A stretch of DNA of 64,000 nucleotides from Lentisphaerota bacterium (lineage in GTDB: Bacteria > Verrucomicrobiota > Kiritimatiellia > CAIQIC01 > JAGNIJ01), in NCBI GenBank assembly GCA_052033915.1, contig JBPOJF010000003.1:58695-122694 (forward strand). Direction: 5' to 3'. The first letter of the stretch is position 1; every line of letters starts with the position of its first letter. This document shows positions 18,382 to 54,970 of the stretch, one piece after another. The translations under genes and the position numbers were made by a program. The notes below the pieces were generated by a model, which was given only the letters and a program-made list of their open reading frames with translations, made no database searches and was not told the origin of the DNA.

Positions 18382-18383
18382 GG

Positions 18384-37856: not shown

Positions 37857-37903
37857 GTATTTGTAGTATCTAGCGTAATAAACGGTTTGAAAGGAGACCG
37901 CAA

Positions 37904-38545: not shown

Positions 38546-38567
38546 GTTAGGTCACATCGTTCTCCGC

Positions 38568-38606
38568 GCGGGCGTCCCGGTTTCGGGACGCCCGCGTTGT
38601 TTGTGT
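38568..38606 (+). terminator. Rho-independent terminator after the PEP-CTERM gene
   Basis: Perfect 12-bp stem GCGGGCGTCCCG / CGGGACGCCCGC with GTTT loop, then GTTGTTTGTGT. Confidence 0.8.
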
Positions 38607-38673
38607 AGCGTCGCCCGTCCTCGGGCGAGTTCCGAATTGGTCGTGTCCAGATTCTTTCGCACTTTGGTCTTAG

Positions 38674-39549: not shown

Positions 39550-42500
39550 TTATCGCTTCAACACTTTCAGCGCGCGTTCGCGCCATTCGCCGGAGAGGTT
39601 GGGGAGGGCTTTCACGGCGAGGTCGAAGCCGTTCTTGGCCTGGCCCTGCGCGATCAGGATCTCGCCTTGTACGAGAGTGTGGTTGGCGTCGTCCGGATCG
39701 ATCGTCGATGCCAGCAGGATATGCTCCATCGCCTTGTCGTACTGCCCAAGGCCCTTGCAGGCCTCGGCGAGCGTGTGGTGGTACTTGTCGTTTGAAGGCT
39801 TCAGATTGACCGCCTCCTGCGCCAGCGTCATGGCTTCGGTGAAGCGGCCCATGCGGACCAAGTCGTAGGCCAGGTTGTTCAGGGCGACATCGTAGAGCGG
39901 ATTGTCTCGATTCTTGAGGCATCGGCGCAAGTAAGTCTCCCTGGCTTCAGGCGTATCCATCAAAGACGCCATGGCCAGGTTCCCGATCATGTTGCCGGGA
40001 TCGCCGGACAGCAACTCTTCGGCCTTCTTGCGCGCTTCGCTGTTCCGTCGCAGTTGCATCGAAAGCCGGATGATGTTCTCGCGCAGGGCTGTGTCCTGCG
40101 GGGTCGTGGCCTCGATCGTCTTCATGTGGCTGAGCGCGGTCGCCAGGTCGCCTTTTTTCTGGGCCACGGACGCCATCAGCTTGAGCATGGGCAGGTTCGC
40201 GGCATCGACGGCCAGGACTTTGCGCGCGAACAACTCCGCCTTGTCGTACTGGTTCAACTGCCATGCCGACATCGCGATAAACGACGCCGAAAGAGTCGTC
40301 TGGTTCGTAGTCGAGAGCAACTGGTTGTAGATGTCCTCCCCGCGCGCCGTATCGCGGTTCTCGAGGTAGAGCAGAGCCAGCAGACTCCGGGCGTTCACGT
40401 TGGCGGCCGACGCCGGGTTCTCCTCCAGAACCTGTATTGCCTTCGCGTAGTCTCTCATGTCCCGCGCCGCGACCGCCAAGCCGATCCGGGCGGAGATGTT
40501 GTCGGGCTGAGTCTGAAGGATGCTGCGGTACTCGGCCTCGGCTTCCGCGAGGTCGCCCTTGCCCTGGGCCAGCAGGGCCGAACTGATCTTCACGGAGAGG
40601 CTGTCCGGGTTGATCATCCGGGCTTGGTTGATCGCGCCGGCTTCCATATCGCGCTGGCCGCCGCGCCGCGCGATGTTGGCCATGTTCAGCGCGAAATGCT
40701 CGGAATAGAGGTATCCGTAGTTCGCAGTCATCATGAACGCGGAACGAAGGAACTTGGGGAACGCCGCCGCTTCTCTCTGGGCCCGCTCCAGAAGGGCCTG
40801 TGCCTTCTGGGTCAGCATCTCCGATCGGACGGTATCGCCGCCGCTGTCGGCTTCCTTGAGGTAGATTGCCCTCTGGTTGAGCAGCGCGCTCGGGTTCTGG
40901 GGCAGGATCTTGAGCGCCAGGTCGTAGGCCTTCTGCGCCAGATCGTCCGACTTCAGCAGTTGCAGGGTCACGCCGAGGTTGTTCGCGCACCGCGAGTAGT
41001 TCTGGCGGACGAACATCTTGAGGGTGTTCGTGCTGTGGTCCGAGATCACCGCTTGGAGCTGATTCGCGAAGGTGTTCTCGAAGTAGTTGACGTTCTTCAG
41101 GTAGACCTCAGATGCCTTCAGGCCGGACAAGTTCTCGACAGGCCGCACCACCAGACCGTTCGGCACGAACTGGTAGCCGATTGACAGGGTCAGGTCGGGA
41201 TTGAACAGCGAACATCCGGCGGGGCCCTTTGCGTTGCCGGACACAATCGCCTTCAGGATGTCCGTTTGCGTGGCGTACGCGGAGGCGTTGATGTTGCATT
41301 CAGGGAATAGGGTGGAGAGGTAACGGCGGTACGATGGCCGACTGATGTCCTGGGCCATGACGATGCGCTCGGGCTGGCCTTCCTCAAAGGCGGCATGAAG
41401 GATCATGTCGTCCATGAAGGAGCGCGAAACGACGAAGACGGGCCGGTTTTCGCACGACCGGACGATGTTCCGGATCAACGCCGTCAGTTCGGGGGTCCGC
41501 GGCGGCACGAAGTGGATGTAGTTCATCACGGCGGTCACGATGGCGATCACGAGGTTCGCGATAGCCGCGGTCTTCCAGACCGGCCTCATCCACAGGGAGG
41601 ATAAGTTCGGGCTCGGGATCACCGCGCGAAACCACCAGTATCCCGCGAGATATCCCATCCACGACGCGATCGCGAGATAGGGGATCAGGAAGGGGTCGTT
41701 CAGACCCATGATGATCGTCGGCGTCATGCCCTTCTCGAGGATCTGCGCGACGCCGAGCACGTTCAGCACAAGCAGGGTGACGATGGTCAGCGCATGCGCG
41801 AGCCGCGTCGAGCCGTAATCCGGCCGCGGCACCAGATACACGTAGATCCACGGCACAAACGCGCAGAGCGCGATCAGAAGACCGCCGACACGCGGAAAGA
41901 TGGATTTGACCTCCAAGTACTGCTTGCGCCACAGATCCAGCAGGACGTTCCAGAACCCCGAGTATTCCTGATATCCCCACTCGGGCAGGCGGGCGACGGC
42001 CCCGACAGGCACGATGTAGAAGAGAAGGCCGCAGAAACCAAGGGCGACGAGCAGCCACAGCCGCTTGGCCGTCAACGCGCGCCGGTACAGCAGGGCGACG
42101 AGCGCCGCGATGACGAAGACAGGGCCGAGAGCGATCATTGTCGCGTATTCGGTGACTCCGAGCCCGTAGAGTAGCGCGGCCCCCATGATCCACCGGACGC
42201 TCGCGTTGGCTCGCGCGTACTGGAGGACCATCCAGAAGCACGACAGCAGGATGAAGAGGTCGAACGTGTGGTTGTCCGGCCGCGTGGAGGCAGTCCACAG
42301 CGGCGCGCAGAACATGACGAACAGCGCGGACGCCAGGATCGCCACGCTCTTTGACGCGCGGGACGCGCCGGCGGGGATCGGCGACGCCTTGTCGTGCACG
42401 ACGAACATCGGCAGTCGGTTCAGCAACTGCACGAACAGGACGATCGAAAGGGATCCGAACACGGCGGAAATGAGATTGAGGTTCATGAGGGTCGGACCGG

Positions 42501-42717
42501 GCATCACGCGAACCACGAGCTTCGCGAGCGAGGAATAGAGGAAGTGCGGGAGCACGGGGAGGTAGTAAAGCCCGTTGACGGTGTTGATGATTCGGACTGA
42601 TGTTCCCGGAACAACATCGCGGACCATTGTCGCGAGGTACAGAATAAAGGATCCGATTCCCGCGATCCACGGTGTTAGGCCGGCCAGCTTGGACAATGGA
42701 TGTTTCGATCCCTGCAT
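39550..42717 (-). CDS. GT-C-fold membrane glycosyltransferase-like protein (DUF2723/TMEM260- and PMT-like N-terminal multi-TM domain) with C-terminal TPR array, paralog 1
   Basis: ~450-aa polytopic N-terminus (LYLATMVRDVVPGTSV... loop-1 acidic motif), ~600 aa of TPR repeats; same architecture as the 45624-48620 gene. Confidence 0.55.
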   Translation of the reverse strand: MQGSKHPLSKLAGLTPWIAGIGSFILYLATMVRDVVPGTSVRIINTVNGLYYLPVLPHFLYSSLAKLVVRVMPGPTLMNLNLISAVFGSLSIVLFVQLLNRLPMFVVHDKASPIPAGASRASKSVAILASALFVMFCAPLWTASTRPDNHTFDLFILLSCFWMVLQYARANASVRWIMGAALLYGLGVTEYATMIALGPVFVIAALVALLYRRALTAKRLWLLVALGFCGLLFYIVPVGAVARLPEWGYQEYSGFWNVLLDLWRKQYLEVKSIFPRVGGLLIALCAFVPWIYVYLVPRPDYGSTRLAHALTIVTLLVLNVLGVAQILEKGMTPTIIMGLNDPFLIPYLAIASWMGYLAGYWWFRAVIPSPNLSSLWMRPVWKTAAIANLVIAIVTAVMNYIHFVPPRTPELTALIRNIVRSCENRPVFVVSRSFMDDMILHAAFEEGQPERIVMAQDISRPSYRRYLSTLFPECNINASAYATQTDILKAIVSGNAKGPAGCSLFNPDLTLSIGYQFVPNGLVVRPVENLSGLKASEVYLKNVNYFENTFANQLQAVISDHSTNTLKMFVRQNYSRCANNLGVTLQLLKSDDLAQKAYDLALKILPQNPSALLNQRAIYLKEADSGGDTVRSEMLTQKAQALLERAQREAAAFPKFLRSAFMMTANYGYLYSEHFALNMANIARRGGQRDMEAGAINQARMINPDSLSVKISSALLAQGKGDLAEAEAEYRSILQTQPDNISARIGLAVAARDMRDYAKAIQVLEENPASAANVNARSLLALLYLENRDTARGEDIYNQLLSTTNQTTLSASFIAMSAWQLNQYDKAELFARKVLAVDAANLPMLKLMASVAQKKGDLATALSHMKTIEATTPQDTALRENIIRLSMQLRRNSEARKKAEELLSGDPGNMIGNLAMASLMDTPEARETYLRRCLKNRDNPLYDVALNNLAYDLVRMGRFTEAMTLAQEAVNLKPSNDKYHHTLAEACKGLGQYDKAMEHILLASTIDPDDANHTLVQGEILIAQGQAKNGFDLAVKALPNLSGEWRERALKVLKR

Positions 42718-42873
42718 GAATGAGGAATGCTATAGCGTATCCGGGGCTGCAAATCAATGACTCGCTGTGGTCACGATCTCGCGCACCTGAGCGCGTCCAC
42801 AGACGGTAGAGCTCATGCGCATCGTCCGCCTTACAGCTTGGCGGGTGGCCCTCTTTCTGGCAATGATTTCCGT

Positions 42874-43770
42874 ATGGGTTCCCGCTGTTTCATCGTGGTC
42901 CTTTGCCTTTCGGTTTTGACGCGTGTTGCCGAAGCACAGCCCCCGCCTCTTCGGGTCGTCAGCCTGGCCCCCAACTTGACGGAACTGATGTTTACGTTGG
43001 GCTTCGGCAGCAATCTGGTGGGCAGGTCATCGGCGTGTGATTACCCGCCCGAGGCGAAGCGGATTCCGATCGTCGGCGGCTTCGGAAGGCCGAATTGGGA
43101 GAAGCTCGAAAGCTTGCGGCCGGACCTTGTCATCGCGACGGATCTCGAGAAGCCGGGGCTTCTGGATCGCCTCAAGGAGAGGGGCGTCGAAACCCTGCTC
43201 CTGCCCTGCGAGAGCTGGGATGAGCTTGTTCAGGCGGGACTCACGATCAGTGAGGCGCTGGGCCGGCGCGCGGCCGGGGAGGAGTTTGTCCGCGGCATGA
43301 CCGCGTGTCGCCGCGCGCTCGAGAGCAGAGTCGCCGCCTTCTACGCCGGAAAGCCCGGACCGCGCGTTTATGTCGAGGTCTGGGGCGATCCGTTGCTGAC
43401 GGCGGGGGCGCAGTCGTTCATCGATGATCTGGTGCGGCTGGCGGGAGGCGCGAATATTGCGGCGGAACTGCGACCGACATATGTCCACGTCAGCGCGGAG
43501 TGGGTGATCCAACAGGACCCGGACGTGATTCTGCTGGCCTATATGTTCCCGAACGCTTCGTCCATCGGAAGTGTTGTGAAGCGGCCGGGCTGGGATAAGA
43601 TGCGGGCGGTCCGAAAAAACGCGATCTGCGCCCATATCCCGCCCGACTTGCTGCTTCGGCCCGGCCCGAGAATCCTGGAGGGGGCGGAGATGTTTGCCGA
43701 GTGGATGATGAGGCGGTCGGAGGTCGCCGGCCGGCAGGAAAACAACGAACAACGAACAACTGACAACTGA
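42874..43770 (+). CDS. btuF: Periplasmic binding protein of a cobalamin/iron-siderophore-type ABC importer (BtuF/TroA-like)
   Basis: Signal peptide MGSRCFIVVLCLSVLTRVAEA; RVVSLAPNLTELMFTLGFGSNLVG...PDLVIAT... class III SBP pattern; C-terminal codons come from an AACAACGAACAACTGACAAC tandem repeat. Confidence 0.75.
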   Translation: MGSRCFIVVLCLSVLTRVAEAQPPPLRVVSLAPNLTELMFTLGFGSNLVGRSSACDYPPEAKRIPIVGGFGRPNWEKLESLRPDLVIATDLEKPGLLDRLKERGVETLLLPCESWDELVQAGLTISEALGRRAAGEEFVRGMTACRRALESRVAAFYAGKPGPRVYVEVWGDPLLTAGAQSFIDDLVRLAGGANIAAELRPTYVHVSAEWVIQQDPDVILLAYMFPNASSIGSVVKRPGWDKMRAVRKNAICAHIPPDLLLRPGPRILEGAEMFAEWMMRRSEVAGRQENNEQRTTDN

Positions 43771-43774
43771 CAAC

Positions 43775-44752
43775 ATGCGCGCCCGGATCACATGGTTTCG
43801 AGTTCTGCTCATCGTCTGCCCGATCCTTGTAGCCGCAAGTGTTTTTCTTGGCGACGGCTGGCGCGATCCGCTGTCGCTGTTTCAACCTGAGCGCGCCGGG
43901 ATTCTGACCGTTCGGCTTTGGCGCGTGGCGTTGGGTGCCCTCGTGGGAGCGTCGCTGTCCGTGGCGGGCTGCGCCCTGCAGGCGGTGCTGCGCAATCCGC
44001 TGGCGGAACCGTACGTGCTGGGCTTGTCCTCCGGCGCGGGGCTTGGAACGGCGCTGTGCATCATTGGCGGAGGGCTGGTGCTGAGTTCCCTGGTGTTGCC
44101 GGCGGCGGGGTTTTTCGGGGCCTTGATCAGCATGCTGATTGTCTATCGGCTGGCCAGGGTGGGGCGGGGGACGGCGCCGCATACGCTGATCCTGGCCGGC
44201 GTGATCTGGGGCGCCGTGTGCGGGAGCGTGCTGATGTTCATCGTGTCGCAGTCGTCCGCCGAAGGGCTCCATGCGATCATGTGGTGGTTCCTGGGGGATC
44301 TGCAGGTGTTCGATGTGCGTCTTGTTCAAGCGACCGCCGTGTTAAGTCTGCTGGCGTTTCTCGGGCTCCTGACGATTTCACGGCCGCTGAACGTCCTCAT
44401 GCTGGGCGAGGAAATGGCGGGGCATGTCGGCCTTGAGCCGGAACGGGTCAAGGGAATGGCCCTGGGCCTGGCGGCGGTGCTGACGGCGGCTTCCGTCTCG
44501 GCCAGCGGCCTGATTTCATTTGTCGGTCTGACCATCCCGCACGCCACGCGGGCGCTGGTGGGGCCGGATCACCGCCGCCTTCTGCCGGCGGCCGCGCTGG
44601 CGGGCGCCGCGTTTCTTGCGCTGGCGGACGGGTTTGGGCGGATGCTGTTGTATCCGACGGAAATCCCCGTCGGCGTGATCACGGCTCTGATCGGCGGGCC
44701 GTTCTTCCTGATGATCCTGCGGACGAAGAGGAAGGAAGTCTGGATTGGATAG
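43775..44752 (+). CDS. btuC: FecCD-family ABC permease (BtuC-like)
   Basis: 9-10 TM FecCD permease; ...GLSSGAGLGTALCII..., ...LGEEMAGHVGLEPERVK..., ...GLTIPHATRALVGPDHRRLLP... Confidence 0.9.
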   Translation: MRARITWFRVLLIVCPILVAASVFLGDGWRDPLSLFQPERAGILTVRLWRVALGALVGASLSVAGCALQAVLRNPLAEPYVLGLSSGAGLGTALCIIGGGLVLSSLVLPAAGFFGALISMLIVYRLARVGRGTAPHTLILAGVIWGAVCGSVLMFIVSQSSAEGLHAIMWWFLGDLQVFDVRLVQATAVLSLLAFLGLLTISRPLNVLMLGEEMAGHVGLEPERVKGMALGLAAVLTAASVSASGLISFVGLTIPHATRALVGPDHRRLLPAAALAGAAFLALADGFGRMLLYPTEIPVGVITALIGGPFFLMILRTKRKEVWIG

Positions 44753-45563
44753 AATCTTGAAACTGGAAACTGGAAGCCTGGATTCGGCGGCGCTCGAACT
44801 GAAAGACATTTCGTCCGGGTATGGAGGGGAGACTGTTCTTCGGACGGTTTCTCTTGCCGTTGCGGCCGGCTCTCTTCTCGGAATCATCGGACCGAACGGG
44901 GCGGGGAAGACCACGTTGCTTCGCGTTCTTGGGGGCGGATTGCCCTTCTGGGCGGGCAGCTTGTCCATTCATGGCAGGGATATCCGCCTGTTCGGGCGTC
45001 GTGAGCTGGCGCAGATCGTCGGGTTCGTCCCGCAGACGCTGGATGTGCCGGTGGCTTTTACCGTGGCGGAGTTCGTGGCTATGGGGCGCACGCCGTACGT
45101 CGCGGGCTGGTCGCGGCTGTCCGAGGCCGATCATGCGGCGGTCCGCAGGGCGATGGCAATGACGGATGTCGAGAGGCTGGAAGGCCGGCTGATTGACGAG
45201 CTGAGCGCGGGCGAGAAACAGCGCGCCGTTGTGGCCATGGCTCTGGCGCAGGAGCCCCGGATTCTTCTGTTGGACGAACCGACCGCGCACCTCGATATCC
45301 ACCATGCCTGGAGCCTGATGGCGCTGATCGTGAAGCTGAACAGGGAGCATGGGGTTACGGTGGTTATGTCGTCCCACGATCTCAATCTGGCCGGGGAATT
45401 CTGTTCGCATCTTCTGTTGATGGATCGCGGCCGGGCCGTGGCGCAGGGAACTCCGCGGGACGTATTGGACGTGGGGAGACTGTCCCGTGTTTACCAGCAT
45501 CCGCTGGAGATCGCAATTCTGCAGGGCGATCAGCGGTTCGTGGCGCCGAAAAGGGCGGAGTAA
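44745..45563 (+). CDS. btuD: ABC ATP-binding protein (BtuD/FecE-like)
   Basis: GPNGAGKTT Walker A, LSAGEKQRAVVAMAL signature, LLLDEPTAHLD Walker B; TTG start overlapping btuC end. Confidence 0.85.
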   Translation: MDRILKLETGSLDSAALELKDISSGYGGETVLRTVSLAVAAGSLLGIIGPNGAGKTTLLRVLGGGLPFWAGSLSIHGRDIRLFGRRELAQIVGFVPQTLDVPVAFTVAEFVAMGRTPYVAGWSRLSEADHAAVRRAMAMTDVERLEGRLIDELSAGEKQRAVVAMALAQEPRILLLDEPTAHLDIHHAWSLMALIVKLNREHGVTVVMSSHDLNLAGEFCSHLLLMDRGRAVAQGTPRDVLDVGRLSRVYQHPLEIAILQGDQRFVAPKRAE

Positions 45564-45623: not shown

Positions 45624-48620
45624 CTACAGCATCGGCATTCCGGGAAGGCTCATGGGGAGGCCCGGCTGCTGGATCGGGGGCACCAAGGCCTTGAACTCAT
45701 GGTTCTCGCGCACGGGATTGAACCGCGGATCTTTCCGGATCACATCGCGTACCGGCTCTCCGCCGAGTTCGATGGCGCGCTTGATCGATTGCACGCACTC
45801 GTTCGGTTTCTGCATGGCCGCCTGGATGGCCGCGAGATCGATCCACACATTGGGGTTCGCGGGCTCGCGGGCCAGGTATTTCTCGAGGGCCGTGGCCAGG
45901 AGATCCATGCGCTTGGCGTCCGCATACATCTTGGCGACGGCCAAGTAGGCGTTCGGCGGGATGTTCGTATCGTTCAGAATGCTCATGGTCAGGCCCTGGA
46001 ACTGGCCTTCGAGGTTGAGCTTGCGGTACAGATCCGCCAGTTCCATGGCCGTGTTCAGTTCGCCCTGTCCCTGGTTGAACTGCGCTTCGAGTTGCGCGCG
46101 CCGGTTGTCCGCTTTCTCGGTCTCGCGGATCTGGTTCAGGAAATCGCCGACCTTGGCGTTGCCGGGATCCTCGCGGAGGAATGCGTCAATCAGCTTGCCG
46201 GCATCGGAGAAACGCCGCTGCTGCATGAGGACGTCCGCCAGCCGGAAATTGGCCTCCGGGCTGAGCGGGTAGAGGTCAATGGCCTGCTGGAAGGCGTACT
46301 CGGCCTCGGGGAACATGCGGCGATAGGCATAGATGCCCGCGATCGCGCCGCGCAGCTTGGAGAACGTTTTCCGGGCCACCACGTCGCGCAGGAACTTGGG
46401 GTTTCCGAGCAGGCGCTGCGTGTACCAGTCCCAGAAATCGCGGTCCTTCTTCACCAGTTCCGGCGACAGGGACGGCAGCGGGTCTGAGTTCAGCTTCATG
46501 ATCAGCCCGTTGGGGGTGAGGTAGGGGTACATCCACGGGATGACGTAACTTTCTTCGACGTAGAATGCGTGCTTGTGCTTGTTGGCCTCGAAGATCATCC
46601 GGCACAGGATGCCGTTGATCATCATGACGCCCTGCACGCCCTGCACGCTGACGCGTCCGTTATCGAACTGCACATCCGCGCCCGGGGGGATGCGCCCGGC
46701 CTGCACGTCCTCCACGTACTTCTGGAACGCGAAATTGCTGTCCTGCTGCGACGGAATCCAGATCGTGTCGCCGTACAGGTCGCGCATGACGCTCATGTAC
46801 GTGTTGTCGGCCAGCGCATTCTGCGTAATGAGGTACACATCCGACCGCACCTTGGCGCAGTAGATCATGTACGTGGGGACGAACCGTCCGGGGTCGGTGC
46901 CCCCGAAGAAAATCGCGTTGGTGTCCATCGGCGGGGGGTAATCCGGCGTGGGATACTGCTTCCAGATCTGTTCGAATTCCTCCGCGGACTTCTTGTAACC
47001 GAGGTCCGATCGAATTCCGTCCACACCCTGAAGCTGCCAGTTGCCGAATTGCCAGCCGAAGTCGTGCTGGTTCTGCTCGGCCCCGCCGACGATCTTGATC
47101 TGCTCCTTGTCGTACGCGTTCTGATACAGGAGCACCGCCGGGAACACGACGACGATGACCAGGGCCAGCGGCTTGATGATGCCGCGCCCGCCGAGAAGCG
47201 TTTCAAGATAGGCGAGCGCAAAGAGGGCTCCGTACCCGAGCCAGATGGCGTACACCGCGTGCGACTGGATGAATTGCACGCGGCCGATGAAGAGCGTCTG
47301 GATATCCAGGTCGGGGTTCTGGAATGTGATGAGAACAATGCTGAGCGAGACGAACGCGACCAGCGAGGTGATCAGCCAGGTCCGGCCCCGGCGGTCGATG
47401 CGTCCGATGAAGAAGAAGGGCACCAGGCCGATGAGGGCAAGGGGAAGCGTGAACTGTTGGCGCAGATCCTTGAAGTACGCGCCCAACTGCGCGACGAACT
47501 TGGCCGAGAAGATGTCCGACGCGGTGATCTTCTCGTATTGCCCGCGCGTGAGGGCGTGCTTGAAGCCTTCCGGCGTGCGGGGGTATCCCCAGTTGATCGG
47601 GGGGTTCTGCTCGGAGGAGATGGGCATGAACCCGTTGAACCCGAGCCCCAGCAGGCACAGACTGCCGATGAGCAGGACGCGCTTCCATTCGGTCATGAGC
47701 TTGCGCTCGATCAGGAACAGGCCCACGGGCGCGAGCAGGAACAACACCGCCATCGTGGTTGTTGTGTTCTTCGAGCGCAGGACTTCCGGCGAGAGGTGGC
47801 CGGTCATGGCGCCGGCTTTCCAGAACAGGTACCCGGAAACGCAGAGGGACAGCGCGGCCATGCAGTCGCGGAAGAGCGAGCGGTCGCGGAACCAGATGGC
47901 GGTCACCAGCGCCGGGCCGACGAAGAGAAGGGTCTGGTGGTTCGTGATGCCGAATCCGAACAGGAACGCGGTGATGTAGAGGATTTTGTCCTCCTTCGGC
48001 CGGCACATCCACATGTACGTCAGGAGGAGCAGAAGCATCTGGAAGAAGGCGTTCAGCGCGTACACCTCGACGATGACCGCCTGGGACCAGAGCACGGGGC
48101 TGAAGGCCAGCAGGAGTCCGCCGGTGACGCCGCCGACCCAGCACAAGAGGCTTTCCGTGGAGATCCCGATCACGTCCGTGGTCTTCTTCACGCTGCGGAG
48201 CATGTCCGTTCCGGAGCGGCTGACCAGGAGAGCGAGCATCCCGCAGGCGAGGGCTCCGAAGAAGGCCGAGGCCAGTCCGACGCTCCACGCCGGATTCGGA
48301 TTCCCGTAGTAGCGAACCCAGCCGAAGATCCATTGGAAGAACCATGTGAACAACGTCCAACTGGGATATCCCGGCGGGTGCGGGACGCCGAGATAGTCCG
48401 AACCCACGGCCAGTTCGCCGCTGTCTTCCAGCGTGACGGTGGGGGCCAGGGTGTAGCAGTACACGCCGAAGGTGATCAGGAAGGTGGTCCAGAACGCCCC
48501 CCAGTCCAGTTTCCGGAAGAAGGCGCCGCTTTGATGGTCGAAGAACGCGGCTTTCTCTTCCGGAGATTGCGAAACGGCTTGGGCACGCACGGTTTTATTC
48601 GGGTTTTTATGATCAGCCAT
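45624..48620 (-). CDS. GT-C-fold membrane glycosyltransferase-like protein (DUF2723/TMEM260-like) with C-terminal TPR array, paralog 2
   Basis: ...YCYTLAPTVTLEDSGELAVGSDYLGVPHPPGYP... N-terminal loop motif typical of DUF2723; ~11 TM helices; C-terminal TPR repeats (...YAFQQAIDLYPLSPEANFRLADVLMQQRRFSDAGKL...). Confidence 0.7.
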   Translation of the reverse strand: MADHKNPNKTVRAQAVSQSPEEKAAFFDHQSGAFFRKLDWGAFWTTFLITFGVYCYTLAPTVTLEDSGELAVGSDYLGVPHPPGYPSWTLFTWFFQWIFGWVRYYGNPNPAWSVGLASAFFGALACGMLALLVSRSGTDMLRSVKKTTDVIGISTESLLCWVGGVTGGLLLAFSPVLWSQAVIVEVYALNAFFQMLLLLLTYMWMCRPKEDKILYITAFLFGFGITNHQTLLFVGPALVTAIWFRDRSLFRDCMAALSLCVSGYLFWKAGAMTGHLSPEVLRSKNTTTTMAVLFLLAPVGLFLIERKLMTEWKRVLLIGSLCLLGLGFNGFMPISSEQNPPINWGYPRTPEGFKHALTRGQYEKITASDIFSAKFVAQLGAYFKDLRQQFTLPLALIGLVPFFFIGRIDRRGRTWLITSLVAFVSLSIVLITFQNPDLDIQTLFIGRVQFIQSHAVYAIWLGYGALFALAYLETLLGGRGIIKPLALVIVVVFPAVLLYQNAYDKEQIKIVGGAEQNQHDFGWQFGNWQLQGVDGIRSDLGYKKSAEEFEQIWKQYPTPDYPPPMDTNAIFFGGTDPGRFVPTYMIYCAKVRSDVYLITQNALADNTYMSVMRDLYGDTIWIPSQQDSNFAFQKYVEDVQAGRIPPGADVQFDNGRVSVQGVQGVMMINGILCRMIFEANKHKHAFYVEESYVIPWMYPYLTPNGLIMKLNSDPLPSLSPELVKKDRDFWDWYTQRLLGNPKFLRDVVARKTFSKLRGAIAGIYAYRRMFPEAEYAFQQAIDLYPLSPEANFRLADVLMQQRRFSDAGKLIDAFLREDPGNAKVGDFLNQIRETEKADNRRAQLEAQFNQGQGELNTAMELADLYRKLNLEGQFQGLTMSILNDTNIPPNAYLAVAKMYADAKRMDLLATALEKYLAREPANPNVWIDLAAIQAAMQKPNECVQSIKRAIELGGEPVRDVIRKDPRFNPVRENHEFKALVPPIQQPGLPMSLPGMPML

Positions 48621-48759
48621 AGCTCACACCACGGGTCGTCGTTCGTTATTCGTAAAAGCCCAGAAGGTATGTTTTTTACAGACCGAGAGCAAGCTTTCAT
48701 GAATGGACAGGAAGAGTGGGGCGGGCGTTCAAAAAGCGCGTGGGATCGGCCGGGGAAAG

Positions 48760-49656
48760 TTACCTCAACAACAGGATCCCGGCCACGGTCAAGCCGTACA
48801 GCGCCAGGTCCGCCAGCAGCGGTTTATCCGTCAGAAGGATCACCTCCGGCTGGCCGCCTTTTTCGTGGCGATAGACCAGGTCGAGGTAGCGGAACAGGCC
48901 GAAGATTACGAACGGGATGGTCAGGCCAAGCTTGGTCGTTCCGAACTTGGCGACGGTATCCGGCCACAGCGTGTACAGCGCGTAGGAAATCAGCGTGGCC
49001 GCGCTGACCACGGCAATCAACTGGTCCAGGAGCTGGCTGCTGTACTGCGCGAGGCTTTCGCGCGTTTCGCCGCCCGTGTCGTTGATCACGACGAACTCGT
49101 GCCGCCGCTTGCAGAGCGCAAGGAAGAGCGCCAGCAGCAGGGCGCACAGGAGCAGCCAGGGCGAAATCGGCACCTGGAGAACGACGGCTCCCGCCAGGGC
49201 GCGGAGGACGAAGCCGGAGGCGATCACGAACAGGTCAACCAGCGCGATCTGCTTCAGCGCGAACGTGTACACGAATTGCAGCGCCACGTAGCCCGCCACG
49301 ACGTAGAAGAACGGCACGGAGAGCCACGCCGCCGCGCCGAGCCCGGCGGCAAGAAGCAGAAAGGCCGTCGCCGCCGCGGTCGCAGTCGAAATCTCGCCGG
49401 CGGCCAGCGGGCGCAGTTTCTTCGTCGGATGCGCCCGGTCCAGCTCCACGTCGCGGATGTCGTTGATCAGGTAAATGCCGCTCGATACGGCGCAGAACAG
49501 GAGGGCCGCCTTCAGTACGATCCAGAAATCGGCGAGGCTGACGTTCAAATGCCGGTCGCCGAGGGCGAAGATGAACGCGGCCAGCACGACAATGTTCTTC
49601 GTCCACTGCCGGGGCCGCATGGCTTGAACGATGCTGGCCGGCCGGGGCTTGCTCAT
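48760..49656 (-). CDS. UbiA-family prenyltransferase resembling decaprenyl-phosphate phosphoribosyltransferase
   Basis: AMRPRQWTKN N-terminal signature of the DPPR-synthase subfamily; NDIRDVELD aspartate-rich motif; 8-9 TM helices; start overlaps upstream gene stop (ATGA). Confidence 0.75.
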   Translation of the reverse strand: MSKPRPASIVQAMRPRQWTKNIVVLAAFIFALGDRHLNVSLADFWIVLKAALLFCAVSSGIYLINDIRDVELDRAHPTKKLRPLAAGEISTATAAATAFLLLAAGLGAAAWLSVPFFYVVAGYVALQFVYTFALKQIALVDLFVIASGFVLRALAGAVVLQVPISPWLLLCALLLALFLALCKRRHEFVVINDTGGETRESLAQYSSQLLDQLIAVVSAATLISYALYTLWPDTVAKFGTTKLGLTIPFVIFGLFRYLDLVYRHEKGGQPEVILLTDKPLLADLALYGLTVAGILLLR

Positions 49657-50420
49657 GATCCGCTTCCGCCTGCCTTCACGCTTCTCGCGTTGCGCTCATC
49701 CGGCACGGAGCGTTTCAGCCTGTTCCGGAACAGGAGTTTCCAAACCATCCAGAGGGCCTCGCGCACGATCGACGAGTTCATCTTCGAGTGGCCGGAGCGG
49801 CGTTCCTCGAACGTGATCGGCACCTCGACGACATGGAAGCCGCGCCGCCAGGTCTCGTTGGTCATCTCGATCTGGAACGAGTAGCCGTTGGACTTGATCC
49901 GGTCCAGATCGATGGACTCCAGAACCGCGCGGCGATAGCACTTGAACCCGCCGGTCGGATCGGAAAACGGCATGCCGGTGACCAGGTGGACATAGATGGC
50001 CGCGCCCTTGCTCAAAATCAGCCGGCTCAGCGGCCAGTTGATGATCCGGATGCCGCCCACGTAGCGCGAGCCGAGGGCCAGGTCGGCCTCCTGCGCCGCG
50101 TCGAGAATCCGCGGTAGATCGTTCGGGTTGTGGGAGAAATCGGCGTCCATCTCGAAGATGAACTCGTAACCGCGCTCCAGCGCCCACTTGAAGCCCGCGA
50201 TGTACGCGCGGCCGAGCCCCTGCTTGCCTTCCCGGTGGAGGCCGTGGATGCGCGGGTCCTGGGCCGCGAGTTCGTCGACGATCCGCCCGGTGCCGTCGGG
50301 GGAGTTGTCGTCCACAAAAAGGATGTGCCCTTCCGGCAGGGCGGCCAGAACGGCCTTGGAAACGTCCCGGACGTTTTCCTTCTCGTTGTAGGTTGGGATG
50401 ACGACCAGAGCCCGGTTCAT
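49653..50420 (-). CDS. GT2 polyprenyl-phosphate mannose/hexose synthase (DPM1/Ppm1-like)
   Basis: VVIPTYNEKENV, FVDDNSPDGT, GKQGLGRAYIAGF, FEMDADFSHNP (DxD) motifs. Confidence 0.85.
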   Translation of the reverse strand: MNRALVVIPTYNEKENVRDVSKAVLAALPEGHILFVDDNSPDGTGRIVDELAAQDPRIHGLHREGKQGLGRAYIAGFKWALERGYEFIFEMDADFSHNPNDLPRILDAAQEADLALGSRYVGGIRIINWPLSRLILSKGAAIYVHLVTGMPFSDPTGGFKCYRRAVLESIDLDRIKSNGYSFQIEMTNETWRRGFHVVEVPITFEERRSGHSKMNSSIVREALWMVWKLLFRNRLKRSVPDERNARSVKAGGSGS

Positions 50421-50525: not shown

Positions 50526-51089
50526 ATGAAACTGGAGATTCGAAAATACGGCGACCCGGTGCTGCGCGAAAAAGCGGAGCCCGTGAAGTCCGTGGACGAC
50601 CGGATCCGCGCACTGGCCAGGGACATGATCGAGACCATGCACGGAGACAACGGCGGCGTCGGGCTGGCCGCCCAGCAGGTCGGGGAGACCGTGTCCGTCT
50701 GCGTGATCGAAGTGCCGGCCGAATACGACGCGGACGAAAACGGGGTGCGCCTCAACCCCGACGTGAAGATGCCGCTCGTCCTGATCAACCCGGTGATGGT
50801 CGAATCGTCCAAGGAGACGGAAGCGCGCGATGAGGGATGCCTCAGTTTCCCCGGGATCTACGCGCCCGTCCGGCGTCCCGTGGAGATCGCGATCGAATAC
50901 CTGGACACGAACGGAAAATCGCGGAGCCTGCGGCTCCGGCACTTCGTGGCGCGCGTTGTCCAGCACGAGATGGATCACCTGAACGGCGTGCTGCTGGTCG
51001 ACCGCATGACCCACCTCAAGAAAATCGCGCTCGCCGGCCAGCTCAAGCGGATGAGGCGCGAGACGCGCGAAGAGCTGGGCGTGAAGTAG
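50526..51089 (+). CDS. def: Peptide deformylase
   Basis: GVGLAAQQVG, EGCLSFPG, QHEMDHLNG motifs. Confidence 0.95.
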   Translation: MKLEIRKYGDPVLREKAEPVKSVDDRIRALARDMIETMHGDNGGVGLAAQQVGETVSVCVIEVPAEYDADENGVRLNPDVKMPLVLINPVMVESSKETEARDEGCLSFPGIYAPVRRPVEIAIEYLDTNGKSRSLRLRHFVARVVQHEMDHLNGVLLVDRMTHLKKIALAGQLKRMRRETREELGVK

Positions 51090-51189: not shown

Positions 51190-52062
51190 TCAATCGACCG
51201 GCGGTATCGGCGCGGCGGGTTCGGGAGCGGCCGGCGCGGCGGGGGCTTCTTCCTTCCATTCCTCTTCGACGGCGGTCTCCTTGCCGGTCTGTTTGCGGCG
51301 TCCGAGAAATTCGCGGGCGAGCTGGCGGTAGGCGGCCGCGCCGGTGCAGTGTTTGTCGTGCTGGATGATCGGCTTTCCGTAGCTGGGCGCCTCGCTGAGC
51401 CGGACGCTGCGCGGGATCAGCGTCTCGTACACCTTGTCGCCGAAATGCGAGACGACTTCCTGGACAACCTGCTGGGACAGGTTGGTGCGCATGTCGTACA
51501 TCGTCATCACGATGCCCTCGATGTGCAGGGCGGGGTTCGCCCCGCTGTCGTGAAGCTGCTGAACGAGCCGCGTGATGACGCTCAGGCCTTCCAGTGCGTA
51601 GTACTCGCACTGGAGCGGGATGAGGATCGATTGCGCGGCGACGAGCGCGTTCATGGTCAGGATGCCGAGCGAGGGCGGGCAATCCACGAAGATATAGTCG
51701 TAGCGGTTCGCCGTCGAAACGGGCGTGACGGCCTCGGTGAACCGGTGCAGGTAGCGATCGGCGCGCGCGACGTCGATTTCCGAGCCGGCGAGATCGAGTT
51801 CGGAGGGGACGATCTCGAGCCGCTCGATCGACGTCGGCTTGATGAGATGTTCCAGCAGGCCGTTGCCCAGGAGGGCCTGGTAGATGCTCTGGCCTTCCTT
51901 TTTTTCGATGCCGAGCCCGCTGGTCGCGTTGGCCTGGGGGTCCAGATCGATGAGCAGGATTTTCTTGCGGCGTTCGGCAAGACAGGCGGCCAGGTTGAGC
52001 GCGGTGGTCGTCTTGCCGACGCCGCCCTTCTGGTTCGCGAACGCAATGATCGGTGTGCTCAT
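51190..52062 (-). CDS. parA: ParA/Soj-family partitioning ATPase with Pro/Ala-rich C-terminal tail
   Basis: NQKGGVGKTTTALNLAA deviant Walker A; ILLIDLDPQANATSGLG; tail ...EEEWKEEAPAAPAAPEPAAPIPPVD; no parB adjacent. Confidence 0.85.
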   Translation of the reverse strand: MSTPIIAFANQKGGVGKTTTALNLAACLAERRKKILLIDLDPQANATSGLGIEKKEGQSIYQALLGNGLLEHLIKPTSIERLEIVPSELDLAGSEIDVARADRYLHRFTEAVTPVSTANRYDYIFVDCPPSLGILTMNALVAAQSILIPLQCEYYALEGLSVITRLVQQLHDSGANPALHIEGIVMTMYDMRTNLSQQVVQEVVSHFGDKVYETLIPRSVRLSEAPSYGKPIIQHDKHCTGAAAYRQLAREFLGRRKQTGKETAVEEEWKEEAPAAPAAPEPAAPIPPVD

Positions 52063-52110: not shown

Positions 52111-52938
52111 TTACTTGCGGACGTTCCAGCCCAGGTTGCGGCCCAGCAACTGGAACAGGGCTTCGTTGTGCGGTTCGAAGTATTTTTGCAGATCCTCGTA
52201 AACGGATTCGGGGACGCCGGGCGCCCGTCCGCTCAGGTCCTGGGCCACGACTCTGGACGGCACGAAGCCCGCGTTGACTTCGAGAAACGAGAAGATCACG
52301 TGCAGGGCGTGTTCCGGGTCCGAGAAGAACTCCTCGCTGGTGAGCACCAGAAGCCGGCGCCGCTCGAACAGATCGAAATACCGCTTGAGCTGATCCACGT
52401 AGATTCCGCGCGTCTTGTAGCTCTTGCGGTGATGGATTTCGCTGACGTAGAACTCGTCGTTCCGCATCTTCTCCAACTCGGGCTTCAGCCGGCTTTCCTC
52501 CAGCCGCAGGGCTTCCTCGATGGGCTGATCCTCTTCGCCCATGTGCGTCTCCCGGAAGTAGTGGGATACGGCGCGCTCCACCGGATTCCGCAGGAGCGCG
52601 ATCATCTTCACGTCGGGCAGGACGTGACGGATGCGCTCCGGGGCGCGGGGGTGAAACAGGTAATACGGGGTCGCTTCGCCGGTGATCCGGTTGTCGCCCA
52701 TCCGCTTGCGGGTGGGGAAGTGAAGCCGGTACCAGGGAACGCCCTTCTGGAAATTCCGGTCGAAGAAGTGAATCTCCTTTTCCGTCCCCGGCAGGATCTG
52801 CGGGTGCTTCATCATCCACTTGTAGAGACGGGTGGTTCCCGATCGCTGGGCGCCGAGGATGAGGAACTGGGGCAGGGCGTGCCGGGGCGCCAGCAGTCTG
52901 TAGAGGGAACGTTCGAGAATGGACGGATGGCTGTTCAT
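52111..52938 (-). CDS. PAPS-dependent sulfotransferase family protein (cytoplasmic)
   Basis: ILGAQRSGTTRL 5'-PSB motif and ALLRNPVERAVSHY 3'-PB motif. Confidence 0.85.
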   Translation of the reverse strand: MNSHPSILERSLYRLLAPRHALPQFLILGAQRSGTTRLYKWMMKHPQILPGTEKEIHFFDRNFQKGVPWYRLHFPTRKRMGDNRITGEATPYYLFHPRAPERIRHVLPDVKMIALLRNPVERAVSHYFRETHMGEEDQPIEEALRLEESRLKPELEKMRNDEFYVSEIHHRKSYKTRGIYVDQLKRYFDLFERRRLLVLTSEEFFSDPEHALHVIFSFLEVNAGFVPSRVVAQDLSGRAPGVPESVYEDLQKYFEPHNEALFQLLGRNLGWNVRK

Positions 52939-52957
52939 CGCGTGGCCCGTGGCCGGC

Positions 52958-53986
52958 TTATTCCTCCTGCGGCGCCGGCGCGGCCGGACCGCTCAACTCC
53001 TTGATCGTGCCGTCGATCTGTCCGAACCGGTTCTGAATCTTGCCGAACCATTTTTCGGCCTCCTCGAACTTGCCCTGCGAGTTGCCCAGGTGCTGGCCGA
53101 CGAGACGGAACGACTCCTCGAACCGGCCGAACTCCTTGCCGAGGCTCGCGAGCTGGTTGAGCATTTCCCGCGCGCGCTCTTCGATCCGCATGCCCTTGAG
53201 GCCCAGGAGGATGGTTTGCAGGTACGCGTAGAAGCTGTTCGGCGATACGGGGATCACGCGCTTGCCCAGCGCGTAGTTGAACAGCGACATCTCGCCGCCG
53301 AACTCGTCGTCGCGGACGATGCTTTCGTAGTAGACGTTCTCGGCCGGGATGTACATCAGGGCGAAATCGAAGGTGCCTTCGTCCGTCCGGATGTACTTCG
53401 AAGCGATCGCGTCAATGTGCTTCCGGACGTCGCGCAGGAAGTTCTTCTTCGCGAGTTTCCGCTCGTTCTCGCCGGCTGCGGCGACCAGGACCCGGAAGTT
53501 CTCGAGGGGAAACTTGGCGTCCACCGGCACGAGCCCGGCCTTCAAGACGATGACCGCGTCGACCTTCTCGCCGCTCCCGAAGGCGTGCTGAAGCCGGAAA
53601 TGTTCGGAGGGGAGAATCTGCGCGAGCAGATCCCCGAGGAACAGTTCGCCGAGATTGCCGCGGAGCTTGGGGGCGCGGAGGATTTCCTGCAAGCTCGAGA
53701 TGTCCTTGCCGAGATCGAAGATGCGCCGGGAGGCCTCGCCGAGCTGGCCCAGTTGTCCGCTCACGCCCTGGATCACCTGGGCGGCCTTGTCGAGCCGGAG
53801 GTTCATCGATTCGCGCGTCGTTTCCATGGATTGCGCGACCTGCGCGTTGAGCGCGTTCACCTGGTTCTGGAGCAGGACCAGCGCCTGGTCGTCCCGCGGC
53901 TGCGCGATGGCGCGGCGAATCCACCACGCGGCGAGAAACGTCGCGAGGAGAACAACGCCCACGGCCATGATTACAATCTGTTCCAT
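52958..53986 (-). CDS. rmuC: DNA recombination protein RmuC
   Basis: N-terminal TM anchor and coiled coil, conserved ...DFALMYIPAENVYYE...GKRVIPVSPNSFYAYLQTILLGLKGM... Confidence 0.9.
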   Translation of the reverse strand: MEQIVIMAVGVVLLATFLAAWWIRRAIAQPRDDQALVLLQNQVNALNAQVAQSMETTRESMNLRLDKAAQVIQGVSGQLGQLGEASRRIFDLGKDISSLQEILRAPKLRGNLGELFLGDLLAQILPSEHFRLQHAFGSGEKVDAVIVLKAGLVPVDAKFPLENFRVLVAAAGENERKLAKKNFLRDVRKHIDAIASKYIRTDEGTFDFALMYIPAENVYYESIVRDDEFGGEMSLFNYALGKRVIPVSPNSFYAYLQTILLGLKGMRIEERAREMLNQLASLGKEFGRFEESFRLVGQHLGNSQGKFEEAEKWFGKIQNRFGQIDGTIKELSGPAAPAPQEE

Positions 53987-54001
53987 CAGCCCTCTTCTCT
54001 T

Positions 54002-54844
54002 CTACCGCACCAGCATTACGGGCGCCGTGGAATTCGCGATGATCTGCGCGGTCGTGCTGCCGACGATCATCTTCCGGATACGGCTGTGGCCGTACGCGCC
54101 GATGACGATCAGATCGCAGCGCTCGTTGCGCGCGTTCTCGAGAATCGCCGCGGACGGCTTGCCCTGGACGACGAGGTTCAGCGCCTGCAGCCCGTGCGCC
54201 TTGACCAGGTCGCACGCGTCCTTCGAGATGTCGTCCGCGCGCGTCGCGTCCTCGTTCTCCGCGACGGTCAGCAGCACGAGTTCCGCCTGGATCGCCTGCG
54301 CCAGTTCCGTGGCCTCGTGGAGGGCCCGGCCGGCGTGCGAGCTGCCGTCGTACGCGGCGAGAATCCGGGTGATGGGCCGGAAGGCGCCGGGCGTGACCAG
54401 GCAGGGTTTGGCCGACTGGCGCACCACGCGCTCCACGATGGACCCGCTCATGTCGCCGATCCATTTCGCGTGCTCGCCCTTCTGGCCCATGACGACCAGT
54501 TCCGCGCGCGCTTCTTCTTCGAGGATGACTTTCGGCGGATGGCCCCTCTTCACGACGGCCTCGGCCTGGATGCCCGCCTCCTCGCAGCGGCTGTGGAACG
54601 CGCGAAGGATCGTGTTGCCCTTTTCCTCCATCAATTTCCGGAACTGCTGAAGCTGGGCCCCGTACGGCTGGGCGCCGATCCAGCCGGAGATATCGGCCAT
54701 CAGCGGACCTTCGAGCATGCGCGAATCGAGCACGTGCAGCCCGAGCAGGCGCGCGCCGAGCTGACGGGTCAGGTGTATCGCGTATTCGCAGGCCACATCG
54801 CCGTGCGGGGATCCATCCGTGCAGACCAGAATGCTCTTGATCAT
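54002..54844 (-). CDS. Universal stress protein with tandem UspA domains
   Basis: Two ~140-aa Usp modules (ILVCTDGS...MGQKG...GSIVERVVRQS... and ILAAYDGS...VIGAYGHS...GSTTAQIIANS...). Confidence 0.85.
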   Translation of the reverse strand: MIKSILVCTDGSPHGDVACEYAIHLTRQLGARLLGLHVLDSRMLEGPLMADISGWIGAQPYGAQLQQFRKLMEEKGNTILRAFHSRCEEAGIQAEAVVKRGHPPKVILEEEARAELVVMGQKGEHAKWIGDMSGSIVERVVRQSAKPCLVTPGAFRPITRILAAYDGSSHAGRALHEATELAQAIQAELVLLTVAENEDATRADDISKDACDLVKAHGLQALNLVVQGKPSAAILENARNERCDLIVIGAYGHSRIRKMIVGSTTAQIIANSTAPVMLVR

Positions 54845-54970
54845 GAGGGTATCCTTTTCCTGAGCTTGAAATCTGCCGTCATGATGCCGGGCCGTCCGCG
54901 ATTTGTCGAGGCCGGGGAGTTGACGCGTCGTTCTTGCACGGGGCGGCTTCCGGTTGCTATGTTACCGCCC

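Follow-up and report, generated by a model that had tools for sequence, protein, structure and literature searches.

A TMEM260-family GT-C glycosyltransferase gene next to a polyprenyl-phosphate sugar synthase pair in a Kiritimatiellia bacterium: a candidate lipid-carrier-dependent glycosylation module

Introduction

When the gene of a large bacterial membrane glycosyltransferase (GT) lies directly downstream of genes for two polyprenyl-phosphate sugar synthases, does the enzyme use one of their products, which sugar does it transfer, and to what acceptor? The question is raised by a three-gene cluster in a 64,000-nt stretch of a Lentisphaerota bacterium (Kiritimatiellia; assembly GCA_052033915.1, contig JBPOJF010000003.1, positions 58,695 to 122,694), referred to here as the window. 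The cluster encodes a family 2 glycosyltransferase (GT2), a UbiA-superfamily protein resembling polyprenyl-phosphate 5-phosphoribosyltransferases (PPPRS), and a protein with a GT-C membrane domain and tetratricopeptide repeats (TPR), called the GT-C protein below. An initial annotation made from the DNA sequence had described the cluster as a self-contained periplasmic glycosylation system of a kind not characterised in bacteria, and had likened the large protein to the eukaryotic TMTC1-4 and TMEM260 enzymes. In this work we compared the three proteins with curated families, solved structures and orthologous loci.

TMEM260 (CAZy GT117, PF11028) is the human/metazoan endoplasmic reticulum (ER) protein O-mannosyltransferase for IPT domains, and its loss in humans causes SHDRA syndrome. 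Its bacterial homologues, the DUF2723 proteins, are numerous (2391 at E ≤ 1e-10 among scored candidates); the searchable literature knows them only as "distant homologs in bacteria" and assigns them no function. The operon described here is a first genomic-context clue for these proteins, since it places one of them beside polyprenyl-phosphate-sugar enzymes with the donor-binding residues of the human enzyme kept. It is of interest chiefly because it may lead to a function for this large, so far uncharacterised bacterial family, and because it could serve as a model of a human disease enzyme. If the proposal made below is correct, TMEM260-type catalysis and the choice of acceptors guided by TPRs could be studied in a tractable bacterial system, PPPRS-dependent lipid donors would be known from the Planctomycetes-Verrucomicrobia-Chlamydiae (PVC) superphylum too, and the Kiritimatiellia, abundant degraders of polysaccharides, would have an envelope modification not yet explored. 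No concept is overturned, as modules of a donor synthase and a GT-C enzyme are classical.

Family, fold and functional residues of the GT-C protein

Residues 66-246 of the GT-C protein match PF11028 (TMEM260-like) with 110.9 bits against a cut-off of 24.2 bits (E = 7.8e-32). Its PDB match is human TMEM260 (9rql), at E = 3e-15 with the single sequence and 3e-21 with a profile of 18 orthologues, and the alignment extends over transmembrane helices (TMH) 1-11. The GT-C fold of the polytopic domain was confirmed by a fold search, in which 350-390 residues align to solved GT-C enzymes. The large protein is thus a GT-C enzyme of the DUF2723/TMEM260 family, as first annotated.

A 2026 cryo-EM preprint divides TMEM260 into a GT-C core of 11 TMH, a luminal domain that is Rossmann-like, and a TPR domain that binds extended peptides. 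The essential residues listed there are D52, H67, R264, Y267, R355 and the catalytic base D441; D52, H67, R264 and Y267 contact mannose or phosphate (R264 and Y267 being the DLL Arg and Tyr). These four contact residues correspond to D66, H81, R359 and Y362 of the GT-C protein, all four invariant in 18 orthologues, and R355 has an approximate counterpart only, R447. The acidic residue expected in the first periplasmic loop was therefore located as D66, the equivalent of TMEM260 D52; the loop motif TLAPTVTLEDSGEL noticed at first reading is present in the translation, as is MRPRQWTKN in the UbiA protein.

The initial annotation had a polytopic domain of about 450 residues running into a long TPR array. 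Both parts are present, but the membrane domain extends to about residue 505 and is separated from the TPRs by a non-TPR α/β domain of ∼250 aa, which is the most conserved part of the protein. This middle domain carries an invariant GGTDPG motif with D576 and is modelled by AlphaFold2 (AF2) as mixed α/β at pLDDT <50. It is a candidate counterpart of the Rossmann-like domain of TMEM260, with a 40-residue local match to TMEM260 438-477 (∼13 identities) that scores only 0.9 bits and is not significant alone. In the TPR region, Pfam TPRs span residues 760-955, AF2 gives helical hairpins at pLDDT 80-93, and Foldseek finds matches to CTPR and to the OGT TPR; the ladder position, Asn in OGT and TMEM260, is by eye an invariant Arg. 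Because the conserved α/β domain lies between the membrane domain and the TPRs, the architecture is that of TMEM260 itself (transmembrane (TM) core, α/β domain, TPR) and not that of TMTC. Membership in the TMTC1-4 (GT105)/PMT_2 group was rejected, as PMT_2 (PF13231) scores 17.9 bits, below its cut-off of 26.1 bits, and the 250-aa non-TPR domain precedes the TPRs. The TMTC1-4-like architecture first suggested was replaced by the TMEM260 module order, and the likeness to TMTC is architectural only.

The GT2 and UbiA proteins as putative donor synthases

The GT2 protein matches Pfam Glycos_transf_2 (E = 1.7e-30), and its best solved relative is the Pyrococcus dolichyl-phosphate mannose (DPM) synthase PfDPMS (5mlz, E = 7.5e-33), ArnC-type enzymes reaching only ∼1e-9. 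Functional residues were read from a HMMER alignment to PfDPMS against the published PfDPMS structure, in which the Asp pair of the DAD motif and the His contact mannose O2/O3 and the acceptor-phosphate R/R/S triad is described as conserved in bona fide DPM synthases. PfDPMS E12, D39 (guanine), D89/D91 and H94 pair with E13, D38, D92/D94 and H97 of GT2; the triad R117, R131 and S135 pairs with R119, R133 and S137, and R202 and K208 of the A-loop with R207 and K213. The catalytic signature of DPM synthases (DAD...H, guanine-binding Asp, R/R/S triad, A-loop R/K) is thus complete in GT2. The protein differs from PfDPMS at Q93 and K178, both replaced by Ser, as in the human DPM1-type motif. No curated NCBIfam equivalog cut-off was reached by GT2 (best AglJ, 56 bits vs 325), and for this reason its mannose specificity is probable and not proven. 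GT2 has no TM segment by hydropathy and ends at residue 255; it is therefore of the soluble DPM1/Ppm1 type. Synthases of this type need a membrane partner in other organisms, as in the Ppm1/Ppm2 partnership.

The UbiA protein matches Pfam UbiA (E = 1.2e-21) and exceeds two curated NCBIfam cut-offs for decaprenyl-phosphate phosphoribosyltransferase (NF008977, 238.4 vs 234 bits; NF008978, 231.6 vs 207 bits). Its PDB match is Mycobacterium tuberculosis Rv3806c (8j8j, E = 1.5e-43). The Rv3806c structure paper lists the ligands of the pyrophosphate, ribose, 5-phosphate and Mg of phosphoribosyl pyrophosphate (PRPP), and states that the phosphoribose-binding sites are not conserved across the wider UbiA superfamily. 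Rv3806c R22, K28, Y70, N73, D77 and K87 correspond to R14, K20, Y62, N65, D69 and K79 of the UbiA protein, and R90, Q135, Y138, K143 and Y157 to R82, Q127, Y130, K135 and F149. Ten of the 11 PRPP/Mg-site residues are identical; the sole change, Y157 to Phe, has also been reported among mycobacteria, and all 11 positions are invariant across 16 homologues of the UbiA protein. A function as quinone, heme O or chlorophyll prenyltransferase was rejected, since the scores fall far below the NCBIfam cut-offs and the PRPP-site residues are kept. We concluded that, judged by its sequence, the UbiA gene product is a genuine PPPRS of the Rv3806c type, in agreement with the decaprenyl-phosphate phosphoribosyltransferase type first proposed; all three initial family assignments hold in the Pfam, NCBIfam and PDB comparisons down to the functional residues.

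Other parts of a ribosyl-lipid pathway were looked for among the called open reading frames (ORFs) of the window, and no flippase (GtrA/SMR/MATE/Wzx), no 5-phosphatase (PAP2 or fused HAD-PRP) and no DprE1/DprE2-type epimerase was found. The operon is therefore not self-contained, and that part of the initial description was given up. The missing phosphatase and epimerase affect the completeness of the pathway, not the family membership of the PPPRS. As no epimerase is linked, ribofuranose is likelier than arabinofuranose as the end product. The only HAD phosphatase of the window, a HAD_2 hydrolase of 228 aa, is encoded 30 kb away from PPPRS and is not linked to it. Its gene directly follows that of a 789-aa protein, the two together occupying 15956-19062 (-); for the larger protein Pfam gives a single match, to a C-terminal PRK/uridine-kinase domain.

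Gene layout

Three co-oriented minus-strand ORFs lie exactly where the initial annotation had placed them (Table 1). Their third-position GC is 0.87-0.88, like that of real genes in this window of 62% GC, which sets them apart from many spurious overlapping ORFs. The UbiA start overlaps the GT2 stop by 4 nt, as had been noticed, and this arrangement reads as translational coupling at the sequence level. The identical 4-nt overlap is present in called genes of other genomes (L081, L082/83 and L084/85). Gene content and gene order of the Logan contig L081 agree with those of the window; together with a UbiA protein that is 100% identical and homologues at up to 96% identity, this contig assigns the window to an uncultured member of the Kiritimatiellia/PVC group. 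In the spacer between the UbiA and GT-C genes no terminator-like or promoter-like sites were detected by consensus scan (operon counts were at shuffle level or modestly above). A spacer without a terminator-like site is consistent with co-transcription of UbiA and GT-C and is no proof of it; we infer that the three genes are co-transcribed.

Table 1. Features of the gene cluster and its surroundings (window coordinates)
Feature	Coordinates	Strand	Remarks
GT2, DPM1/Ppm1-type polyprenyl-phosphate mannose synthase-like, soluble	49653..50420	-	255 aa; Pfam PF00535
UbiA-superfamily PPPRS (PPPRS/DPPRS-like)	48760..49656	-	298 aa
TMEM260-family GT-C glycosyltransferase: TM core, conserved α/β domain, TPR	45624..48620	-	998 aa
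Overlap of GT2 stop and UbiA start, ATGA, 4 nt	49653..49656	-	ORF coordinates
UbiA/GT-C intergenic spacer, 139 nt	48621..48759	-	
Polytopic GT-C membrane domain, ∼aa 37-505	47106..48512	-	AF2 helices 37-503; at least 9 strongly hydrophobic segments
First periplasmic loop motif TLAPTVTLEDSGEL…GVPHPPGYP with D66, H81	48363..48449	-	Aligns to TMEM260 SVPGGDSGEL…GVAHPPGYP
Conserved periplasmic α/β middle domain, ∼aa 555-755	46356..46958	-	Densest invariant columns in orthologue alignment
C-terminal TPR array, ∼aa 760-980	45681..46343	-	Pfam TPR_19/TPR_2/TPR_16/TPR_14; AF2; Foldseek
Peptide deformylase def, divergent from GT2; 5' boundary of cluster	50526..51089	+	PF01327, E = 1.6e-50
ABC-transporter operon (Fe/B12-type), convergent; other boundary of cluster	42757..45563	+	
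Second DUF2723+TPR paralogue, divergent, possibly associated	39550..42717	-	1055 aa; PF11028 E = 2.7e-8, plus TPRs

Conservation of the gene neighbourhood

Orthologues of the GT-C protein were collected by a profile scan with one genome per GTDB species, which gave 80 loci at 44-96% best-segment identity, nearly all in metagenome-assembled genomes (MAGs) labelled Kiritimatiellia or Verrucomicrobiota, many of them Pontiellaceae. Sixty-eight of the 80 have enough upstream DNA to be informative. The GT2-UbiA-GT-C triple is present in 17 of these 68 species-level loci and GT2 without UbiA directly upstream of GT-C in one (L074); neither gene adjoins GT-C in the remaining 50. When the loci are placed on a neighbour-joining tree, those with the triple are dispersed over one of two major clades, basal branches included, which suggests an ancestral linkage that has been broken repeatedly. 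The triple order is kept across lineages in which the proteins are 51-70% identical and the outer flanks differ.

Loci around UbiA homologues were examined by a UbiA-profile scan of metagenomes. Where the upstream sequence is long enough, GT2 stands immediately upstream of every homologue with 56% identity or more (33 loci including two at 51-52%). Here def is often divergent beside GT2, as it is in most GT2-UbiA loci overall. GT-C follows the pair in ∼12 of ∼28 informative metagenomic loci (∼40%). MAG FR_21 carries the pair on one contig and GT-C on another, and Lentisphaerae GWF2_57_35 has the pair without an adjacent GT-C. Because the pair is constant in these loci and GT-C is next to it only sometimes, the invariant unit is GT2-PPPRS, tightly conserved and often overlapping, and GT-C is its frequent, ancient and dispensable neighbour. 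The three genes, whose co-occurrence the initial annotation had proposed to check, do recur together in related genomes; GT-C is unlinked in many loci. UbiA homologues at 44-53% identity sit in other contexts; five of them at 48-50% (L115, L118, L120, L121 and L126) are in an SDR (GDP-Man-dehydratase-like)-UbiA-DUF362-SMR-Wzy_C cluster, a candidate pentofuranose system in which a Wzy_C-type enzyme would replace the classical GT-C.

The other major GT-C clade has other conserved neighbourhoods, and the GT-C orthologue has at least three besides the triple. In 11 Pontiella-type loci of this clade (L034, L036, L040, L050, L051, L057-L059, L067, L078 and L080) a divergent cluster upstream of GT-C contains a GtrA-like gene and, where the flank reaches, a GT2-Polysacc_synt fusion of ∼700 aa, GT4s and a GDP-mannose 4,6-dehydratase; a 793-aa polytopic protein without Pfam match belongs to it too, and one GT4 lies downstream of GT-C. 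In another locus (L011), an ArnC-like GT2 (7024-8160; E = 1.4e-63 to ArnC) is encoded ∼1.7 kb upstream of the GT-C orthologue (9890-13078), with NeuB also upstream and no PPPRS nearby. Two near-identical type IV pilin-like genes (9352-9687 (+) and 15606-15974 (+); N-terminal FTLVEIMIVVAIIGLLAAIGIP, Pfam N_methyl) flank this orthologue, an arrangement that recalls pilA-tfpW. They are the only pilin-like ORFs near GT-C orthologues in 1.3 Mb around the 80 loci. A general pilin link is therefore not supported; the pilin neighbours are an anecdote that fits a protein acceptor and is not general.

Proposed mechanism and alternative readings

We propose, tentatively and as a possible reading of the whole chain, a lipid-carrier-dependent glycosylation module at the outer face of the inner membrane with mannose as donor sugar and Ser/Thr of a polypeptide as acceptor. 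At the cytoplasmic face, the soluble GT2 would move mannose from GDP-mannose to polyprenyl phosphate, and the UbiA-type enzyme would charge the same carrier with 5-phosphoribose taken from PRPP. Proteins encoded elsewhere would have to flip the lipids and to remove the 5'-phosphate of the ribosyl lipid. At the periplasmic face, the polyprenyl-phosphate sugar would be bound in the TM core of the GT-C protein via D66, H81, R359, Y362 and approximately R447, and would be passed to an acceptor held by the periplasmic lobe of the α/β domain and TPRs. By homology with TMEM260, the likeliest reaction would be O-mannosylation of Ser/Thr in an extended polypeptide, and the ribosyl lipid would supply a different transferase or be a second donor. 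GT2 and PPPRS may form one membrane complex in which the 9-TM PPPRS anchors the TM-less GT2: the overlap of the two genes, conserved in several genomes, suggests PPPRS as the membrane partner, and we offer this as conjecture. A mannose donor and a polypeptide acceptor are favoured because the mannose/phosphate-contacting residues of TMEM260 are invariant in the GT-C orthologues, because the TMEM260 TPR binds extended peptides, because L074 keeps GT2-GT-C without UbiA, and because L011 pairs a GT-C orthologue with an ArnC-like GT2.

Several results weigh against this proposal. GT-C is unlinked to either synthase gene in 50 of the 68 informative loci, and in every triple locus its immediate upstream neighbour is PPPRS, not GT2. 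The fold search is blind to the donor, as the arabinofuranosyltransferase AftB scores the same as mannosyltransferases. The AF2 model of the GT-C protein is poor in every active-site loop; D576 falls one position off TMEM260 D441 in the local match, and the equivalence of the two residues is taken as a lead. Neither a flippase nor a 5-phosphatase was found among the called ORFs of the window. An extended form of the proposal seems rather doubtful. In it, Kiritimatiellia would have a prokaryotic counterpart of the TMEM260 pathway: a protein O-glycosyltransferase guided by its TPRs would modify extended polypeptides in the periplasm, perhaps pilin-like or other secreted proteins of the envelope, with donors from an undescribed GT2-PPPRS complex in which PPPRS is both polyprenyl-phosphate ribose synthase and membrane anchor. 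If true, the DUF2723 proteins of bacteria would receive their first function, and the human disease enzyme a bacterial model or ancestor.

The position of PPPRS directly upstream of GT-C in the triple loci speaks for the main rival reading. In it the GT-C protein would be a TfpW-like pentofuranosyltransferase whose donor comes from the neighbouring PPPRS (polyprenyl-phosphate ribofuranose, or an epimer formed by unlinked enzymes) and whose target is a protein or glycan, and GT2 would serve another step or another transferase. There are precedents in TfpW, fed by the PPPRS PsPA7_6246, and in systems of PPPRS, flippase and GT136, and the pilin-like genes that flank the GT-C gene of L011 resemble the pilA neighbour of tfpW. 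We consider this reading somewhat unlikely, because the mannose-contacting residues of TMEM260 are invariant in the orthologues, the PPPRS of the window lacks an accompanying 5-phosphatase, epimerase and flippase, L074 and L011 have a GT2 with no PPPRS nearby, and entire clades whose active sites are nearly the same lack a PPPRS within 10 kb.

The GT-C protein could also transfer mannose or another hexose from polyprenyl phosphate to a glycan or lipid (lipopolysaccharide/lipoglycan, exopolysaccharide or a peptidoglycan-linked polymer), GT2 and PPPRS giving two building blocks, by analogy with mycobacterial mannosyl-/arabinosyltransferases of lipomannan (LM) and lipoarabinomannan (LAM) or with Gtr-type O-antigen modification. 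The paired polyprenyl-phosphate mannose (PPM) synthase and PPPRS recall the mycobacterial PPM and decaprenyl-phosphate arabinose (DPA) donors, which build LM, LAM and arabinogalactan (AG). Most characterised bacterial GT-C enzymes that use polyprenyl-monophosphate sugars act on glycans or lipids (ArnT, Aft/Emb, GT136), the Pontiella-clade orthologues stand beside polysaccharide genes (GT4s, GDP-Man dehydratase, GT2-Polysacc_synt fusion), and TPR domains are able to bind sugars too. We consider such an acceptor unlikely: TMEM260, the sole characterised family member, and the enzymes of related architecture (TfpW, TMTC, OGT TPRs) act on proteins, and no carbohydrate-binding module (CBM) was detected in the GT-C protein by Pfam scan. 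A conserved macromolecular partner would account for the very high conservation seen in the periplasmic lobe, which does not, however, tell the two readings apart. Very unlikely, finally, is a chance association, in which a housekeeping donor module, GT2-UbiA, stands beside def and the GT-C protein uses any lipid-linked sugar or is non-catalytic, although the pair lacks GT-C in ∼60% of the metagenomic loci, in FR_21 and in GWF2_57_35, and GT-C orthologues have their other conserved neighbourhoods. The persistence of the triple order despite sequence divergence and differing outer flanks, and the placing of a fold that uses polyprenyl-phosphate sugars next to two synthases of such sugars (with GT2 or GtrA-like genes beside orthologues elsewhere) speak for a functional link, and the invariant catalytic residues speak against a non-enzymatic role. 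The data show the family membership, the conserved functional residues, the GT-C fold and the recurring linkage of the genes; donor choice and protein acceptor are inferred.

Comparison with known systems

The GT-C protein shares with TMEM260 the Pfam family, the module order (∼11-TM GT-C core, α/β domain, TPR), the loop-1 motif DSGEL…HPPGYP and the expected use of a polyprenyl-type monophosphate sugar donor. It would act at the periplasm, whereas TMEM260 acts in the ER, and its carrier would be a bacterial polyprenol and not dolichol. The bacterial protein exceeds TMEM260 by ∼290 aa, its middle domain being larger and its TPR longer; the ∼20-25% identity is confined to the TM core, and the bacterial gene is in an operon with putative donor synthases.

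Pseudomonas aeruginosa TfpW is an 11-TM GT-C enzyme that has a TPR in the periplasm and depends on an acidic loop-1 motif; it O-arabinofuranosylates pilin from a PPPRS-initiated lipid donor. By description, the likeness to the window system includes the bacterial 11-TM GT-C, the acidic loop-1 motif, the periplasmic C-terminal TPR and a UbiA-type PPPRS that starts the donor pathway; the TfpW acceptor is protein Ser/Thr. TfpW differs in its size (646 aa), and no middle α/β domain has been described for it. Its system (PsPA7_6246-6249 plus TfpW) includes GtrA-like and DprE1/E2 proteins and adjoins pilA, none of which is in the window cluster, and it involves no DPM1-like GT2, unlike the operon described here.

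Three-component pentofuranose systems of PPPRS, flippase and GT-C have been generalised (Kelly et al., 2024), for instance in Citrobacter youngae with ORF15 (PPPRS-PRP), ORF14 (MATE flippase) and ORF12 (GT136 GT-C) (Kelly et al., 2024). The window locus shares with this system the genetic coupling of an Rv3806c-type, PRPP-dependent polyprenyl-phosphate ribose synthase to an extracytoplasmic GT-C, and the conserved NDxxDxxxD and RxxE motifs. It differs in that its PPPRS has no fused HAD phosphatase, the cluster has no flippase, the GT-C protein belongs to PF11028 and not GT136 and has TPRs instead of a CBM, and a GT2 is added as synthase of a hexose donor.

Actinobacterial Ppm1/PMT is a further bacterial example of lipid-donor-dependent protein O-mannosylation. 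Together with arabinan synthesis by DPPRS(UbiA)/Emb-Aft it shows the same two donor chemistries (polyprenyl-phosphate mannose made by a DPM1-like GT2, polyprenyl-phosphate phosphoribose made by a UbiA enzyme of the Rv3806c type), with donors consumed by GT-C enzymes at the outer face, and a GT2 of the soluble catalytic type that needs a membrane partner. The host of the window is, by contrast, a diderm PVC bacterium, its GT-C protein is not of GT39, GT53 or GT85, DprE1/E2 is not nearby, and its donor synthases are encoded by a translationally coupled gene pair, which is not so in mycobacteria. The Gtr-type (GtrA/GtrB/GtrC) and CsbB/GtcA/YfhO systems follow the same scheme, with polyprenyl phosphate charged by a GT2 and the sugar transferred extracytoplasmically by a GT-C. 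The window GT2 lacks the TM anchor of GtrB, however, and is closest to DPM synthases; GtrA is not in the window, the only orthologues with a GtrA-like gene next to them being those of the Pontiella clade.

The claim that such a system has not been characterised in bacteria can therefore be kept for the DUF2723/TMEM260 family in the searchable literature and not for the concept, since the scheme of a donor synthase plus GT-C, including GT-C with TPR acting on proteins, is already well established in bacteria by TfpW and the PPPRS/flippase/GT-C systems. What is new is the combination of a TMEM260-family GT-C with a paired PPM-synthase/PPPRS donor module in a PVC bacterium.

Second DUF2723 paralogue and other genes of the window

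The second DUF2723+TPR paralogue lacks the EDSGEL and HPPGYP loop-1 motifs, and no acidic loop-1 residue is invariant among eight of its relatives. It is probably non-canonical and may be non-catalytic or mechanistically different. An arrangement of two donors and two GT-Cs, with this paralogue using the ribosyl lipid, is unlikely, given the missing motifs and invariant acidic residue. Very divergent relatives of it (23-27% identity) are encoded near the main GT-C in seven loci (L001, L003, L004, L022, L028, L063 and L079).

Beside the second paralogue, a stretch of lower GC (0.54-0.57) at 37062-39321 (+) encodes three small secreted proteins. The first (264 aa) has two internal repeats, the second (213 aa) a PEP-CTERM-like tail PEPTSVALGLLGLGVIVIRRRLMRK, and the third (186 aa) is a paralogue of the first. 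Relatives of the 264/186-aa family are encoded near a second-paralogue-like gene in L001, L022 and L079, and these proteins could be partners or substrates.

The remainder of the window is ordinary chromosome; other called genes are rnpA, yidC, ftsK, plsY, gpsA, mutS and one tRNA-Phe. A Sulfotransfer_1 protein (52111-52938 (-)), with no relative among the 80 orthologue loci, is encoded beside a ParA-like ATPase (51190-52062). The FtsK protein (52919-57349 (+), 1476 aa) has an N-terminal extension of ∼690 residues, its 4TM Pfam match starting at residue 696.

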